Assembly (NCBI RefSeq): GCF_056712565.1
Contig: NZ_CM160072.1
Length of the DNA stretch: 64,000 bases
Direction: 5' to 3' (one strand)
The notes under the pieces were generated by a model. That model was given only the letters and a program-made list of their open reading frames with translations, did not search any database and was not told the DNA's origin. The stretch's first letter is position 1. Every line of letters starts with the position of its first letter. Positions 1 to 5,731 of the stretch are shown piece after piece. The position numbers were made by a program, and so were the translations under genes.

Positions 1-261
1 CGGGGAAACCGTTACATCAGACAATCGGTAAATATTGCTAATGCATTGGCGAGTCGCCGGTTTTCCAGACTTAATGCGTTTGTAATAAATGTTGGTTCTC
101 TTTTGATAGGAAAACCTTGCTACCAAGTAAATATTTTAAATAACAGCAAGTTTAACTACTGTTGTTTATTGATCGTTTAGATATTATGTGATTTTTCATA
201 CCGCTCCAAAATACAAACCATTTTTCATTAATAATGAGATGAACATTGGTGAATTTCTCGG

Positions 262-288
262 GTGTGCGTAGCCATGCCACACACACCC
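262..288 (-). other. Stem-loop ~45 nt downstream of the fimbrial subunit stop (gggtgtg...cacaccc); possible intra-operon attenuator or RNA-stability hairpin
   Basis: 7-bp perfect inverted repeat seen in sequence; no clear U-tract follows on the minus strand. Confidence 0.3.
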
Positions 289-329
289 TGTTTCAATTTC
301 AGATGACACATAGTCACCTTAAGAGTGAA

Positions 330-893
330 TTATAGATATTGAACTTTGAAGGTCGCATCAGCGTTTGCAGTACCAGCTACTGACTGCCCGAGAGCAATAT
401 AACGAGCCTGGAACGGCAGTATATTCGTGCCATCAATCAAGTCAGTTTTAGCGCTAAAAGTAGCACCATCAAGTACTAATACCTCCCCTGTACGGTCCAA
501 AATTTGGATACCGACATTTTGGGCAGAGCCTGCCGCTGAACTCTGCAGCGCTAATGTATCGTCATTACTGGTGACAGTAGTACCCAGGAATGCAACAGCT
601 GCATTACTGGAAACATTGGTATCACAATCATTCAGCTTGATATTGAAGCCAACGGCGGAGCTGAGGTCACCCGCTTTAGCCAGGCGAGAAGAACGAACCT
701 GACCCAGCTCAACCGTTTGGTTCATTGATTCTGAATCAATCGCACAAGCGGCATTTACCACTTCACCTTTAAAATGAATTACACCGCCATTAACAGTGGT
801 CGTTACTGATTCATCACCCTCGGCTGCGCTTACCGCAGCAGACGACATCGCCAACACAGAAACGACAATAATACCGACATGTTTGAGTTTCAT
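330..893 (-). CDS. Fimbrial major-subunit-like protein (chaperone-usher family, F9/Fml/yde-type locus), 187 aa
   Basis: ORF track 330..941; internal ATG at 893 preceded by GGAG; Sec signal peptide [24 protein letters not shown]-terminal ...ATFKVQYL typical of pilin donor strand region; 727-bp AT-rich upstream region. Confidence 0.8.
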
Positions 894-1668
894 AATTCTC
901 CAAAATTTATATTTAAGTAGCTGAATAAAGAGAGTTAACAATTAAGTTATTCTGTTATTGCTTATAAAACAAGAATCATTCTTGATTGGATGTTGCCCTG
1001 AGAATATAGTTTCCATGGTTATTACATTTCACGAAGAATGATAATATCTTTAAATTACAAGGACACCTATTCACAACAAGTTTATTGCTGCACTTGTTGT
1101 AGAGAGTATTTGTAAAAACATTTTATGTCGCTAAATAACATGACGATTTCATTATGCATGTTATTTATAAACAGCGACTAAACAGAATATTATTGCGAAC
1201 AAGGGAAGTGTCAGGAAAGGTCAAGAGGTACTAATAGTTTATATGGCTATAAACATTAGCTATGATTAATATTTGCCTGGTGAAACTAACACCAAATTGC
1301 TGTAACTCTCTTTGAATCATAAACTGAAGGATGATGCAGCACAGTTCCTCGTGGACTATCCTGGCTACTACATGACCAAACGCGGATATCATCCTCGAGC
1401 AGTCAACTCTGGCCATCTTTTTACTCAGCTATGAGGACCTGATCGTCGACTTTGCTATCTGCATGATGAATCTCCTCAGCAGCAGATGCAGTATTTACCG
1501 AAATGAATTCCATGAATAATGCAGTAATTAGTAGTGCTTTCATATCTGATACCTGTTTTAAACGATATATTTGAAAGTTGACGAATATCGGAAATAGCTT
1601 CCTCCTTCTTGATCTGTAAATATACAGTTCTAAGCTGTCATAAGACTGACTGTCATATGACAACGTTG

Positions 1669-2451
1669 TTAGATTTTTGAATTTTTCGAATACAGATTCA
1701 GGTCGTTAATAACGCACTCAGGTTCTTCAGTAAGGGGCATATTGTCTATATCGAAAACCCCATCATTTTTTTGTGGATTATCATTCCGCAGCTCTGCAAA
1801 CAGAGGAGTGAGATCCTGCTGTGCTTCTCCTCGCTCTGCGACCAGTTCGAACGTTTTATTTTTTGCCGCATCGTTGCTCAGAGCTGTTACAAGAACCTGG
1901 GCGATTTGCTCCCGGGAGATAACACCATCTTCCGGCGTTCCCGCATGGCGTCTGTCCCCCTGAAGCATGACGATTCTGTGCTCATCATCATTGTTGTAAT
2001 CAAACCAGCCGGGTCTGACGATAGTGTAGATATGCCCACTGGCTCTGACCAGGCGTTCAGAGCGTCTCTTCCAGTCATGAACTTCAGTACGTTGATTCCA
2101 GCTACTGAGCCGCTCAGTTACGCCAATCGTTGTCATCAGGGCGATGCGAACAGGTGTATCCATGAATATTCGCAAAATGTTACGTACACCGCCGTAATCT
2201 ATTGCTCTGGCGCCAATACGTCCCTGACCATCAGAGCCGAGTGTAAAAATGATGGCATCAATATCTTTCGGTAAATCGGTAAGTGTTTCAGGTATTGAAA
2301 CATCGCCATAGAAAATATCTGTTCCACGAGGGAGTAACTTGATTTTCCGCCGATTCCTGACCAGAGTCACGGGCTGATGGCCCATTGCAATAGCAGTATT
2401 CACAACATGAATACCAATACTTCCTGTTGCGCCAGCAACGAGTATTCTCAT
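1669..2451 (-). CDS. NAD(P)-binding Rossmann-fold protein (atypical SDR / NmrA-like), 260 aa
   Basis: N-terminal MRILVAGATGSIGIHVV glycine-rich dinucleotide-binding motif; ATG at 2451 preceded by GAAGG. Confidence 0.65.
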   Translation of the reverse strand: MRILVAGATGSIGIHVVNTAIAMGHQPVTLVRNRRKIKLLPRGTDIFYGDVSIPETLTDLPKDIDAIIFTLGSDGQGRIGARAIDYGGVRNILRIFMDTPVRIALMTTIGVTERLSSWNQRTEVHDWKRRSERLVRASGHIYTIVRPGWFDYNNDDEHRIVMLQGDRRHAGTPEDGVISREQIAQVLVTALSNDAAKNKTFELVAERGEAQQDLTPLFAELRNDNPQKNDGVFDIDNMPLTEEPECVINDLNLYSKNSKI

Positions 2452-2560
2452 GATAAACCTTCTGATAATTCAGCCTTATTTTTGATACAGCCAGAATATC
2501 AATTATCATTATTGCCAGTAACGAGGCTAAAATGATTGTGTCTATGAACACCCTTCATGA

Positions 2561-2818
2561 ATGCGCTTTGAAGGGAATGCTTCTACAAGGAAATCTATTC
2601 AACAACGTCTTAAGCAGGCTTCAGATGCACGAGCTCAGGAAGTCGCCGGTAGCGAAGTGCTTTACTCCGGTGATGCCAACCTGACTGATGAACAGATCGC
2701 TAAATTACCTTTTGCGTTATATCGCCAGGGCTACGAGTACTACTGGAAAACCCACGCACACCCAAACATATTCAGAAGCGTGAGGGATATAGTGCCATCA
2801 AAGCGCTGGCTGCTGTAA
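2561..2818 (+). CDS. Hypothetical protein, 85 aa, no recognisable family
   Basis: ORF track only; no convincing Shine-Dalgarno; could be a gene remnant. Confidence 0.2.
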   Translation: MRFEGNASTRKSIQQRLKQASDARAQEVAGSEVLYSGDANLTDEQIAKLPFALYRQGYEYYWKTHAHPNIFRSVRDIVPSKRWLL

Positions 2819-3076
2819 ACAACGCAATTATCCAACTCATGGTCTATGGTGTGCCATCACTGAACAGAGGTTGAATTTTTCTACCGAAACGGGAGGGAAG
2901 TCAGAAATCACAACGTATTGATTTATCTGTGTGTGGATGTGAATGGTGAAGTAAAGGACCTTCACAGGCAATTTAACATAATATACATTATGCGCACCAA
3001 CATAAACCAAGGGAGAATCCAGTCGTTGGCGGTTCATGATTGTTCTGCTCATTAACAACGACCAAAACCCCATATC

Positions 3077-4399
3077 TTACTTAATACCGTATTCTCGGCT
3101 TAACCGACCGTGCAACCTCAACACATTGGTTTCAACTGCCGTCACCACGTTCTCCGGAAAATCTGTCGGTAATGAAGTCTTCACGTTATCCAGTGCTGCC
3201 GGAATCATTCTGGCAAAGTCACTCAGGATTTCATGCATCTGCACTTCCGGGAATTTCAGCACCTTTGCTGTCGCCAGAAAATGTCGCGGATAAATTTTAT
3301 CGATTGCCGTTTTTTTGCCTTTGGATGCGTTAAGCCCCATTGCCAGTTTGAGATCGCTGATGTGTATTCCCGTACCGCCAAGGACCGGAAATGCCGAAAT
3401 GATGTCATAAAATGGTGTGAGCCGATAACTGCCGCCAGCCTGAATAAATACGGAGAAGTTTTTTGCATGGCCATCTGTTGCGCCAATCAACCACTGGAAG
3501 ACCTGAAACTTCATAAAATCATAGCGATCTTTCAGCGCCTCGCTGGACCCCATCAAAAAAGCCATAATTTGCGCGATACCGGGGCCTCCATCTGATTCAT
3601 ATTTCACCGATGAAGGTAAACCGAATGTCTGGCACATATCCTCCTGTGGCAAGCGAAGTAAAACCGTTCGCTCAGTATTCCAACGCCTGTCAAAACGTTT
3701 GACCGCTAACGCGCGCACCCTTCCCGCTTTAATGATTTCTGCGTCCGGAACATTCAACCCGAGTTCTTTCGCCAGCAGCAAACAGTAATACTCATTATCA
3801 ACGCTTTGGCTAAGATCGAGCGTCGCATTGGGCTGTCTGATTTCGCCAATCGGCAATTTGATAATGTGCGTCGTTGGCGTTATTCCCTTCGGAATGCACC
3901 AGTCATTGCCTATTCTGAGCAGCGCAGTCTTCTCCTGTGCGCCAGCAACCGAGATGCGAAAGTCATTTTCTTCTCTAATCATGCCTAACGGGATATCTGC
4001 TTTATAAGCCGTTAATACTTCTTCAAGTCTGGCTTCAGTAAGCTTTTCCCATGCCATTATCGGACACATTACGGTTTCATCTTCGGGGATTAACGTCACG
4101 GCACCAACGCTGTCTCGCCCTATTTCTGACAATAAATCAAACGGTTGTCTGGATTTAGCATGATAACGTTTAACGATCCGGTCACGTACAATCGGGCTAT
4201 CGGGTAACAGGTTATCGAAGAAGTTAAATACGGCATCAGAGGTGATATTCCTCCTCTGCAATGGCAGCGAAAGTGACAACGGTCTGGCATAACGGCTGGC
4301 TAACCACTCAGGTGCATACTTAAAGGTGTGCGCGCCGTTGGCTAACTTCGTTAACTCGCCTACCCGCTGGTTGTTCATCCAAGTGACTAGTTTAGGCAT
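3077..4399 (-). CDS. hipA: Serine/threonine kinase toxin HipA, 440 aa
   Basis: Protein begins MPKLVTWMNNQRVGEL as in E. coli HipA; ORF track start is 19 codons upstream and overlaps hipB. Confidence 0.95.
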   Translation of the reverse strand: MPKLVTWMNNQRVGELTKLANGAHTFKYAPEWLASRYARPLSLSLPLQRRNITSDAVFNFFDNLLPDSPIVRDRIVKRYHAKSRQPFDLLSEIGRDSVGAVTLIPEDETVMCPIMAWEKLTEARLEEVLTAYKADIPLGMIREENDFRISVAGAQEKTALLRIGNDWCIPKGITPTTHIIKLPIGEIRQPNATLDLSQSVDNEYYCLLLAKELGLNVPDAEIIKAGRVRALAVKRFDRRWNTERTVLLRLPQEDMCQTFGLPSSVKYESDGGPGIAQIMAFLMGSSEALKDRYDFMKFQVFQWLIGATDGHAKNFSVFIQAGGSYRLTPFYDIISAFPVLGGTGIHISDLKLAMGLNASKGKKTAIDKIYPRHFLATAKVLKFPEVQMHEILSDFARMIPAALDNVKTSLPTDFPENVVTAVETNVLRLHGRLSREYGIK

Positions 4400-4665
4400 C
4401 ACCACTCCAGATCTTGCTGTTCTGTTGCTTCTGGCGAGGCATTTTTTGCGTCGCATAGCGTCATTGAGAGTTCAAGCGACTGTAAAATCTTAAAAAATGT
4501 CGTGAGCGAGGTATTGTTAGGATTGTTTTCGAAATTGGAAATTGTCGCCTGCTTAATGCCGATTTTTTTCGCCAACTCGCTCTGCGTCCAGCCGTTTTGC
4601 TGGCGAACCAGTTTCATTGCATTCGCCAATTGCATTGGGCTATAGATCTTCTGAAAGCTCATCAT
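4399..4665 (-). CDS. hipB: Antitoxin and HTH repressor HipB, 88 aa
   Basis: MMSFQKIYSP...TEQQDLEW matches HipB; 1-nt overlap with hipA start. Confidence 0.95.
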   Translation of the reverse strand: MMSFQKIYSPMQLANAMKLVRQQNGWTQSELAKKIGIKQATISNFENNPNNTSLTTFFKILQSLELSMTLCDAKNASPEATEQQDLEW

Positions 4666-4686
4666 GTCATACGTCCACAGCAAATT

Positions 4687-4800
4687 TATCCGCTTAAGGG
4701 GATATTATCAGTTTTATCCTTTAGTGAGGATAAAGTCAATCTGGAAACACATCCTATCCGCTCTACGGGATAAACGCTGCGATATCCGCGATCGCGGATA
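4687..4800. promoter_or_regulatory. hipBA promoter with four HipB operators (TATCC-N8-GGATA at 4687-4704, 4715-4732, 4755-4772, 4783-4800)
   Basis: Four exact TATCC-N8-GGATA palindromes seen directly upstream of hipB; matches the known operator consensus. Confidence 0.85.
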
Positions 4801-4972
4801 AAAAGGAGGATTTAAAAAAGCACATCCTAATGCGGTGGCTTCTTTGACTACCGGAATCTGTAATCTTAATGACCTGGCCGCGTAAAAAACGTCTGTTCAA
4901 TGGGGTGATGCCGTGAGGCGAATTTATCAGTTTTATCTACAATTGGGGTAACGCGCTGACGGGAGTAAAAAA

Positions 4973-5731
4973 ATGTCTGACTGGAACCCCTCTTTATATC
5001 TACACTTTGCCGCTGAACGATCGCGTCCGGCGGTGGAGCTGCTTGCCAGGGTGTCGCTGGAGAATATCGAATACATTGCCGATCTTGGCTGTGGCCCAGG
5101 TAACAGCACCGCCCTTCTACACCAACGTTGGCCTGCTGCCAGGATAACGGGCATCGACTCATCTCCGGCGATGATTGCTGAAGCGCGCAGTGCTTTGCCA
5201 GACTGCCTGTTTGTGGAAGCAGATATCCGCAACTGGCAACCGGAACAGGCACTCGATCTGATTTTTGCTAATGCCTCGCTGCAATGGCTGCCCGACCACT
5301 ACGAATTGTTTCCTCATTTGGTTTCGTTACTCAGTCCGCTGGGCGTGCTGGCAGTACAGATGCCAGATAACTGGCTGGAGCCGACCCATGTGCTCATGCG
5401 CGAAGTTGCCTGGGAACAAAACTACCCGGATCGCGGGCGTGAGCCGCTGGCTGGCGTTCATGCTTACTACGATATTCTGAGTGAAGCCGGATGTGAGGTC
5501 GATATCTGGCGAACCACTTACTATCACCAGATGCCGTCGCACCAGGCGATTATCGATTGGGTGACCGCCACTGGATTACGTCCGTGGTTACAGGATCTGA
5601 CCGAGAGCGAACAGCAGCATTTTCTTACGCGCTACCATCAGATGCTGGAAGAGCAATATCCCCTCCAGGAGAACGGACAGATATTGCTGGCATTTCCGCG
5701 TCTGTTTATTGTTGCCCGCCGTACGGAGTAA
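4973..5731 (+). CDS. tam: Trans-aconitate 2-methyltransferase, 252 aa
   Basis: [24 protein letters not shown]... with SAM-binding motif [10 protein letters not shown]. Confidence 0.9.

Follow-up and report, generated by a model that had tools for sequence, protein, structure and literature searches.

The closest described relative of the fimbrial DNA examined here is the F9 operon of CFT073 (c1931-c1936; Wurpel et al. 2014, PMC3966885), which occupies the ydeP-hipBA locus with the major subunit gene placed first. Its transcription start site (TSS) and its −10 and −35 elements were mapped in CFT073, where binding of the promoter by H-NS and cold-induced expression were shown as well (PMC3966885), and the variable nature of the DNA 5′ of F9 has been noted earlier (PMC3966885). 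The second described landmark is dif, the chromosome dimer resolution site of XerC and XerD, whose E. coli sequence was given in PMC3025954 and which adjoins hipA in K-12 (PMC5638614). In K-12, the stretch from the F9 upstream region to dif holds the yneL block, a remnant of an AraC-family regulator.

We analyzed positions 1-3076 of a window of 64,000 nucleotides (NCBI RefSeq assembly GCF_056712565.1, contig NZ_CM160072.1), a region that is 100% identical to its counterpart in ST95-type E. coli B2 genomes, including ATCC 11775 and IHE3034, the latter of which has been listed as F9-intact (PMC3966885). With high confidence, we read 1-3076 as the terminus-proximal end of the F9 (Fml/Yde) operon followed by a strain-variable, decaying island that reaches up to dif beside hipA. 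With its two short "new" ORFs explained as by-products of deletions, the region is ordinary; the F9 operon with its promoter, the variable DNA on its 5′ side and dif have all been described before. Its value is one of annotation, in that the protein WP_001210030.1 and a tempting "small secreted peptide" appear to be accidents of deletion, and it provides a case of DNA turnover between a dispensable operon and dif. Upon recomputation from the sequence, all four open reading frames (ORFs) listed in an initial annotation had the coordinates and translations given there.

The F9 pilin gene and its control region

The gene at 330-893 (minus strand), which PGAP labels fimA, encodes an F9/Fml fimbrial major subunit of 187 amino acids. 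The protein matched the Pfam Fimbrial family (PF00419; E 7e-31, 107.9 bits, cut-off 25.6) as well as the NCBIfam FimA model (173.9 bits, cut-off 140) and shares 70% identity with K-12 FimA, while a GGAG ribosome-binding site lies 5 nt 5′ of its ATG. In genomes that are 100% identical over 1-3076, the gene heads an operon with a chaperone gene, an usher gene and three further subunit genes (ydeS/R/Q), all intact and located left of the window. Its context, with chaperone and usher at the ydeP-hipA locus, is thus of the F9 type, where the partner genes lie outside the window and were read from these identical genomes. The initial annotation had called the pilin gene intact and suggested inspecting the DNA left of the window for chaperone and usher genes; their presence there shows that the pilin is no orphan and places it in the F9/Fml locus. 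It had also correctly reported that no chaperone gene starts within 1-329, as the ATG of the chaperone coding sequence, according to the annotation of IHE3034, lies 33 nt beyond the left end of the window. Positions 1-329 (minus strand) hence constitute the right-hand 329 bp of a 361-bp pilin-chaperone spacer. This segment contains a hairpin with a 13-bp stem at 260-288, and RNA folding gave −36.6 kcal/mol (z −5.35), a value reached by 0 of 200 shuffles. The hairpin is not followed by a U-run, and a simple terminator scan 3′ of the pilin gene returned no canonical terminator. A FimI-like remnant was sought throughout the 361 bp and none was found, nor did any Rfam family match within 1-5000 at E values up to 1.

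Compared to F9 of CFT073, the window copy showed no substantive difference: it lies at the same ydeP-hipBA locus and has the same gene order with the major subunit first, the same promoter elements and the same 251-nt leader, the window holding just the first gene and the control region. All the published elements were present exactly, at 1144-1180 on the minus strand, namely a TSS (G at 1144) located 251 nt upstream of the gene, a −10 element CATAAT (1151-1156) and a −35 element TAGTCG (1175-1180) separated by an 18-bp spacer. This sigma-70 promoter would drive the major subunit gene through the 251-nt 5′ untranslated region at 894-1144. Based on the published CFT073 elements and on conservation, we delimited the F9 regulatory region to 894-1305 (minus strand), of which the block 942-1305 is conserved together with F9 in ~4,950 of 5,426 genomes. 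Given the identity of the promoter and a GC content of 29.9% over 894-1305, the window copy is predicted to share the H-NS binding and cold induction of its CFT073 counterpart, such that binding of H-NS to the AT-rich F9 region would lead to silencing at 37 °C.

The initial annotation had described a single 727-bp AT-rich region (942-1668) of the kind seen at H-NS-silenced fimbrial promoters. This description held in so far as the region is AT-rich on average, with 35.5% GC versus 48.3% in the whole window, and contains the F9 promoter for which H-NS binding is experimentally established. Its composition, however, is not uniform (GC rises to 47.2% over 1306-1449), and it does not form one control region: only 894-1305 qualifies as such, while 1306-1668 is island debris.

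A variable island bounded by dif

We located dif at 2971-2998 (minus strand), with a match of 28/28 to the E. coli site. With up to 3 mismatches allowed, the window contained no other match, and shuffled sequences yielded none. The XerD arm points towards the island and the XerC arm towards hipA (3077-4399, minus strand), which forms a conserved right-hand anchor just outside 1-3076. The site agrees with the described E. coli dif/XerCD system in its 28 identical base pairs, its position beside hipA, its single copy and the convergence of KOPS, all four of which point to dif (two on the plus strand to the left and two on the minus strand to the right, albeit small numbers); the difference from K-12 is confined to the flank next to the XerD arm. 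The initial annotation did not mention dif, which of all landmarks here best accounts for the variability of this flank among strains.

Homology to K-12 was restricted to 1072-1305 and returned at 2971, which confirms the earlier statement that the flank stands in place of the K-12 yneL remnant. The intervening island (1306-2970) and the K-12 yneL block are both remnants at the same position, from the F9 upstream region to dif, yet their sequences are unrelated, and the K-12-type and B2-type flanks diverge exactly at the outermost base of the XerD arm of dif. We mapped the island as a set of deletion variants relative to K-12, O157-type, ST131-type, TUM13773, ATCC 25922, FDAARGOS_1373 and 23AR0806 sequences, and found at least 8 different deletion or insertion variants of the F9-dif interval among complete E. 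coli genomes. Across 5,426 genomes, the yneL-type flank was present in 4,337 and the B2-type dif flank in 955, while the single intact gene of the island, encoding a short-chain dehydrogenase/reductase (SDR), was found in 271.

The rest of the island consists of scraps. Positions 1306-1449 (plus strand, 47% GC) hold ~33 internal codons of a hydrolase-like gene, and PGAP annotates a pseudogene "missing N- and C-terminus" at 1318-1416. An exhaustive HMMER search yielded short matches (~35 amino acids, 57-73% identity) in the interior of various proteins, among them an alpha/beta-hydrolase of 440 amino acids, and the matched proteins did not agree in Pfam content; the scrap probably represents a hydrolase-type motif. 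At 2790-2867 (minus strand) lies a 26-codon scrap of an MFS transporter gene, from its 3′ part and containing an in-frame stop; 24 of 26 residues are identical to residues 369-394 of a 400-aa Tatumella MFS protein.

We propose that a larger acquired block was reduced by successive deletions to the present island (1306-2970). The block would have contained a BhsA-like gene, the SDR gene, a LysR regulator, hydrolases, transporters and other genes, of which only the SDR gene, along with its promoter region, survives intact. The variability may reflect the location of this interval between a dispensable operon and dif, in which there are no essential genes and into which elements would repeatedly insert, for instance filamentous phages via Xer. 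Deletions would stop at the edge of dif because dif itself cannot be lost.

An intact SDR gene from a dismantled stress cassette

The gene at 1669-2451 (minus strand) is intact and encodes an atypical SDR/NAD(P)H-binding protein of 260 amino acids. Matches to NAD_binding_10 (PF13460; E 4e-32, 112 bits, cut-off 27.2) and to NmrA (E 3e-8) bear out the initial call of an atypical-SDR/NmrA-like protein. Its Rossmann GxxGxxG motif reads GATGSIG (residues 7-13), and the classical catalytic YxxxK motif is lacking: upon alignment with 3E8X, which together with YtfG and triphenylmethane reductase is among its nearest solved structures, the Lys is aligned but the Tyr position is taken by Glu or His (EVHDWK). 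The missing Tyr would fit the "atypical" branch of SDRs, and the protein probably reduces some electrophile or quinone at the expense of NAD(P)H.

Full-length orthologues, mostly 80-95% identical, occur at 30 other loci in ~30 genera, where the gene is part of an unnamed Enterobacterales stress cassette of SDR, BhsA-like and MarA-like genes under a LysR regulator. This cassette spans ~4.6 kb with sharp common ends, carries a palindrome (GTCCGCTTyTGGCACaAAGCSGAC) at the left one, and shows 88-94% nucleotide identity across enterobacterial families. Of this cassette, the E. coli copy retains the SDR gene, the promoter region between SDR and LysR, and 31 initial codons of the BhsA-like gene, which are orthologous at 81-85% nucleotide identity. 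It no longer has the genes for LysR, the MarA-like protein and two aldo/keto reductases, nor the greater part of the BhsA-like gene. The former divergent SDR/LysR promoter region (2452-2595) aligns colinearly to ATCC 25922 and to the sequences of other genera as far as 2595, that is, until 5 bp before the start codon of the lost LysR gene, and includes the highest-scoring sigma-70-like site of the region, at 2482-2509 on the plus strand (score 10/12). With its divergent LysR regulator gone, the SDR would now be poorly expressed or not inducible.

Rather than being a passive leftover, the SDR might have been kept in some B2 lineages for a useful reductase activity, expressed from the retained promoter without LysR. 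An intact copy, with identity of at least 99%, is found in 271 genomes, which could reflect maintenance by selection despite the loss of its regulator; the ribosome-binding site is good, and the intergenic promoter region has been retained in full. A dN/dS of 0.08-0.13 in the orthologue comparison furthermore signals strong purifying selection over the long term. Within E. coli, however, divergence is too low for selection to be measured, partial deletions of the SDR gene occur in at least 6 other E. coli variants, and the regulator and every neighboring gene of the module have been lost, which leaves such retention a tentative and rather unlikely explanation. In other genera, the BhsA-like gene is followed by the MarA-like one, and we also considered whether K-12 yneL could be a remnant and orthologue of the latter; in that case, the flanks of K-12 and B2 would have arisen from a common ancestor by two different deletions. 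This idea was rejected, as tblastn gave an E value of 2.4, a similarity at the family level only, and blastn gave no match.

Two short reading frames at deletion endpoints

Two short ORFs remain, which the initial annotation had presented as an 85-codon ORF of unknown family and a 40-codon ORF for a signal peptide followed by an acidic peptide. Searches of both against Pfam and NCBIfam at E values up to 10 returned no match. The 85-codon ORF (2561-2818, plus strand; PGAP "hypothetical protein" WP_001210030.1) turned out to be a chimera, created in frame where 823 bp present in ATCC 25922 have been deleted. It consists of 11 codons from the LysR 5′ untranslated region/leader, 58 internal codons of an alpha/beta-hydrolase gene and 16 read-through codons, and the MFS scrap lies antisense to its 3′ end. 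The hydrolase fragment (2596-2768, plus strand, from IQQRL to HAHPN; PGAP "acetylxylan esterase") was delimited by comparison with ATCC 25922 and with relatives of ~212-270 amino acids, which run past both of its ends. The ORF does not qualify as a DLH/AXE1-like alpha/beta-hydrolase: the GICGGGGYS nucleophile motif falls within 63 deleted codons, and the C-terminal catalytic region with DGATHIE is absent as well.

The 40-codon ORF (1424-1543, minus strand) starts at an inner ATG of an 80-codon ORF with a TTG start. Up to codon 31 (1451-1543), it corresponds to the 5′ end of a BhsA/YhcN-family gene for an 83-aa protein, the rest of which is lost; its last 9 codons are unrelated DNA. A word-indexed protein search with the 40-aa peptide had returned only the E. 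coli peptide itself, and the relatives were found instead by synteny in other genera, at least 14 of which carry an intact 83-aa BhsA-family orthologue ~145 nt downstream of the SDR gene. Identity to these orthologues amounts to 21-24 of the first 31 residues and to 2 of the following 9, and nucleotide homology to other genera stops at 1450. In the intact orthologue, PF07338 (YdgH/BhsA/McbA-like, DUF1471) covers residues 32-83, while the ORF retains residues 1-31 only; it is therefore a remnant and no member of the YhcN/BhsA family. In TUM13773, PGAP annotates it as a BhsA pseudogene.

Considering their origin, poor ribosome-binding sites and narrow distribution, neither short ORF would represent a gene or a gene family. 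It is extremely unlikely, in our judgment, that both are real, the one as a gene of an unassigned family and the other as a small secreted acidic peptide tied to the fimbrial promoter region. Such a reading could invoke that both frames are open, that PGAP annotates the 85-codon ORF as a protein and that the LysR-type promoter-like site at 2482-2509 could transcribe it, and that a plausible Sec signal peptide, AxA site included, is still encoded by the 40-codon ORF. Yet the 85-codon ORF, assembled from three unrelated pieces and devoid of a Shine-Dalgarno sequence, exists only where one specific 823-bp deletion occurred, with its junction present in 117 of 5,426 genomes. The 40-codon ORF combines 31 codons of an 83-aa gene with 9 unrelated ones and misses PF07338 entirely, a Gly in the hydrophobic core of the orthologues is replaced by Glu, and relatives of this exact peptide occur in E. 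coli only.

Origin of the exact boundary at dif

The base-exact boundary between strain types could result either from selection on dif or from an Xer-mediated event. In the latter case, an element would have integrated at dif through Xer recombination (an IMEX) and left the island as its remnant, and one of the flank types would be element DNA from the XerD arm outwards. Such an origin would account for the divergence of strain types at the outermost XerD-arm base, but selection on dif after deletions would leave an equally exact boundary. A filamentous prophage is integrated at dif in TUM13773 and shows a degenerate dif half-site, which illustrates the use of dif by such elements, although it inserts on the opposite, XerC/hipA side. 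A relic dif or half-site at the left edge of the island was rejected, as neither the window nor K-12 showed one there when up to 4 mismatches in 17 were allowed, and a half-site search over 1-3300 at the same threshold returned nothing besides dif; the island moreover contains no recombinase or phage genes and does not classify as an IMEX. The cassette is clearly mobile, judging from its high identity across families and its sharp common ends, and its homologues in Tatumella (7.8 kb from dif) and Rosenbergiella (0.3 kb from dif) share both the XerD-side location and the orientation of the E. coli B2 copy, where ~0.1 such cases would be expected by chance among the ~30 loci; in most genera, however, no dif lies within 8 kb of it. 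Overall, we consider an IMEX origin improbable and favor successive deletions of an acquired block that halted at dif.

The region opens no new question apart from a weak hint that the widespread stress cassette tends to land beside dif. That the cassette was the cargo of an unrecognized type of gene movement into the XerD side of dif, with the exact strain-type boundary as its scar, appears very improbable.

Fimbrial genes and the F9 control region

Positions 1-3076 of the window fall into three parts, namely a known fimbrial promoter with the first gene behind it, an acquired island in decay, and dif. At 100% identity, the same sequence occurs in at least 30 complete E. coli genomes from phylogroup B2; ATCC 11775 (the type strain), IHE3034 and several O1/O2/O18:K1 strains are among them. 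The open reading frames (ORFs) named in the initial annotation have the coordinates and translations that it gave them. In IHE3034, the gene order reads ydeP, ydeQ, ydeR, ydeS, usher, chaperone, pilin, pseudogene scrap, SDR, hypothetical protein (the 85-codon ORF), hipA, hipB and tam. Published accounts already cover the F9 operon with its variable 5' flank and its H-NS control, dif, and the filamentous phages that integrate at dif; only the piece-by-piece detail of the debris is new, and it is of no new kind. Comparing annotations, we observed that tam directly follows hipB (4666-4972) and that the K-12 autotransporter pseudogene yneO is missing there; the lsr operon (autoinducer-2 uptake) is presumably also wholly missing at this point, judging by the K-12 gene order.

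The pilin gene (330-893, minus strand; labelled 'fimA' by PGAP) encodes 187 amino acids with a Pfam Fimbrial match (E 7e-31) and 70% identity to K-12 FimA. It heads the F9 (also Fml or Yde) operon, which Wurpel et al. 2014 list as intact in IHE3034 (PMC3966885). The initial annotation rightly saw no chaperone start in 1-329, because in IHE3034 the chaperone ATG is outside the window, 33 nt left of base 1. Inspection of that left flank, which it had proposed, finds chaperone, usher and ydeSRQ adjoining the pilin gene in IHE3034, and the pilin gene is therefore no orphan. The pilin-chaperone spacer is unusually long (361 bp) and holds, ~45 nt past the pilin stop codon, a hairpin with a 13-bp stem (260-288, minus strand; fold z -5.35) that is followed by no U-run; it may attenuate transcription or stabilise the transcript, and so affect how much major subunit is made relative to the other products.

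F9 transcription starts at a G, 251 nt ahead of the coding sequence, with a CATAAT -10 and a TAGTCG -35 element separated by 18 bp, and H-NS binds the 251-bp region, which is repressed at 37 C and expressed at 20 C (PMC3966885). We located the start (G at 1144), the -10 (1151-1156) and the -35 (1175-1180) in the window, which identifies the promoter. The 727 bp upstream of the pilin gene (942-1668), earlier proposed to be an AT-rich, H-NS-silenced fimbrial promoter region, have a GC content of 35.5% versus 48.3% for the whole window, unevenly distributed, with 29.9% in 894-1305 and 47.2% in 1306-1449. While the first 364 nt (942-1305) are kept in ~4,950 of the 5,426 complete E. coli genomes, just 319 hold the whole 727 bp. 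As only 942-1305 is widely conserved, the H-NS proposal probably holds for 894-1305, which carries the mapped F9 promoter, and 1306-1668 is not fimbrial control DNA. K-12 has kept the F9 promoter together with 73 nt from the start of its leader (L002 8080-8314, the counterpart of window 1072-1305), now joined to the truncated usher gene ydeT; the deletion took the pilin gene, the chaperone gene and the 5' part of the usher gene and spared the promoter.

A variable island between the F9 control region and dif

Upon alignment with K-12, we found homology at 1072-1305 and again from 2971 onward, and nowhere else, such that a 436-bp K-12 block with yneL is replaced by 1,665 bp here (1306-2970), as the initial annotation had supposed of the yneL region. 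Across seven other E. coli genomes, this interval occurs as many deletion and insertion variants. The much larger TUM13773 variant runs from a scrap, a truncated bhsA, SDR and a truncated LysR gene through an alpha/beta-hydrolase, a carboxymuconolactone decarboxylase, a cupin, further fragments and an 'acetylxylan esterase' to a filamentous prophage; ATCC 25922 has SDR with a LysR and an esterase fragment, the ST131-type variant has lost SDR, the O157-type and K-12-type variants carry the yneL block of unrelated sequence, and strain U1 has yet another redox gene set. The yneL-type block is present in 4,337 of the 5,426 genomes and the B2-type dif-proximal flank in 955, and 271 carry the SDR gene at 80% coverage or more. 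On our reading, the island is acquired DNA in decay, and its two small ORFs are by-products of that decay.

The 85-codon ORF (2561-2818, plus strand), which was thought to belong to an unknown family, is instead an accident of a single deletion in a single lineage. It has no family match in Pfam or NCBIfam at E up to 10, and its creating junction occurs in 117 of the 5,426 genomes. Compared with ATCC 25922, 823 bp are missing from the window (L007 11178-12000); the gap opens 5 bp ahead of the LysR start codon and closes at codon 64 of the esterase fragment, with 1 base of microhomology. The ATG at 2561 lies inside the former LysR 5'UTR and is by chance in frame across the junction, so that the ORF consists of 11 leader codons followed by 58 hydrolase codons (IQQRL...HAHPN) and, in place of the relatives' C-terminal 90 residues with their DGATHIE motif, 16 unrelated codons. 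Relatives of the hydrolase (~212-270 aa) extend past both ends of this piece, and the deletion has removed the nucleophile motif GICGGGGYS. Opposite the 3' end of the ORF, on the minus strand, lies a scrap of 26 codons from an MFS transporter gene (2790-2867; in-frame stop) that is identical to a Tatumella protein at 24 of 26 positions. No Shine-Dalgarno sequence precedes its ATG. A 50-codon ORF in another frame (2532-2684, plus strand) overlaps it and also crosses the junction; its ribosome-binding site (GAGG, 5 nt upstream of its ATG) is the better of the two.

The 40-codon ORF (1424-1543, minus strand) likewise has no Pfam or NCBIfam match at E up to 10, and a direct protein search with its 40 residues had no matches beyond E. 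coli copies of this remnant. However, at least 14 of 30 SDR loci outside E. coli carry an 83-aa ORF ~145 nt downstream of SDR (MKALLITTLVMGFISVNAASAAQEINHAVGKEKIGVVSASNAY...AEIYK in Pseudescherichia vulneris), whose residues 32-83 form a YdgH/BhsA/McbA-like domain (PF07338, E 6e-18). The 40-codon ORF matches it at 21-24 of the first 31 residues and then at 2 of 9, and nucleotide homology with all these loci stops at window 1450; it is therefore a beheaded BhsA-like gene. The signal peptide proposed earlier is thus genuine in origin, while the short acidic peptide gene is not, being a 31-of-83-residue remnant with foreign sequence beyond. In TUM13773, PGAP independently calls the equivalent of 1451-1543 a BhsA pseudogene 'missing C-terminus', and the remnant carries a Glu in the hydrophobic core where orthologues have Gly. 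Neither small ORF is probably expressed.

The SDR gene and its cassette

The SDR gene (1669-2451, minus strand; 260 aa) was correctly assigned as atypical SDR/NmrA-like (Pfam NAD_binding_10, E 4e-32; NmrA, E 3e-8). A search outside E. coli, with one genome per species, gave 30 loci with mostly 80-95% amino-acid identity. Compared with all orthologues (257-263 aa), the gene is full length, it is under purifying selection (dN/dS 0.08-0.13), and it carries the GATGSIG motif (residues 7-13), a ribosome-binding site of GAAGG and a complete intergenic promoter region. Aligned with 3E8X, its best solved relative, it keeps the SDR Lys and not the catalytic Tyr position, which fits the atypical branch; further solved relatives include YtfG and triphenylmethane reductase.

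In other genera, the gene sits in a ~4.6-kb cassette with two aldo/keto reductases, a divergent LysR regulator, the BhsA-like gene and a 112-aa MarA-like regulator. The cassette (L031 4925-9566 in Tatumella saanichensis; equivalents in L010-L037) recurs in more than 20 genera from two families at 88-94% nucleotide identity, with sharp, common ends and unrelated flanks, and its left end falls inside a REP-like palindrome (GTCCGCTTyTGGCACaAAGCSGAC) that recurs elsewhere in some loci. This context suggests that the enzyme reduces an electrophile or quinone with NAD(P)H and would normally be LysR-induced; here, the gene is left without that regulator and is presumably poorly expressed or not inducible. 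In strain P4, PGAP names a truncated SDR (H159, equivalent to 1671-2083) 'LecA/PA-IL family lectin', which looks like an annotation artefact; SDR residues 130-198 give a weak PA-IL Pfam match of 18.7 bits versus a cut-off of 22.5.

dif and the filamentous prophage

The segment 2971-2998 (minus strand) matches GGTGCGCATAATGTATATTATGTTAAAT, the experimentally confirmed E. coli dif (PMC3025954), at 28 of 28 positions; it is the sole match in the 64 kb at up to 3 mismatches, with none in 100 shuffles. dif adjoins hipA (PMC5638614), with its XerD arm toward the island and its XerC arm toward hipA, and all four KOPS motifs nearby point toward it, albeit in small numbers. K-12-/O157-type and B2-type sequences are unrelated on the island side, where they part exactly at the edge of the XerD arm, and are conserved on the other side. 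The island is so variable, we suggest, because it is dispensable DNA beside a site that attracts insertions and is itself undeletable, and the same circumstance may account for the base-exact boundary. At the left edge of the island we found no relic dif or half-site, and the idea that the island itself arose through Xer recombination is therefore unsupported and rather improbable.

In TUM13773, a filamentous prophage (L006 23157-32410) with Zot-like, pII/X-like and GspD-like genes begins right after the XerC arm, on the hipA side. Its island-side border is the perfect dif, and at its far end stands a half-site (TTGACATTATGCGCACC) whose XerD arm is degenerate; filamentous phages that insert at dif are known to integrate in this way (PMC7307601). 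A dif with 1 mismatch also lies 7.8 kb from the SDR module in Tatumella saanichensis (L031 153-180) and 0.3 kb from an SDR module fragment in Rosenbergiella nectarea (L038 7690-7717), so that three genera (E. coli B2, Tatumella and Rosenbergiella) agree in having the module on the XerD side and in its orientation. Together with the cassette's high identity across families and its sharp ends, this placement is a weak hint of a dif-directed mode of transfer, which we nevertheless consider very improbable. Lastly, the 4-6 bases beside the XerD arm (2965-2970, and equivalents in the loci L004, L006 and L008) differ among B2 strains that are otherwise almost identical in this flank, reading caggca, cataatca, cagtca or caggta.
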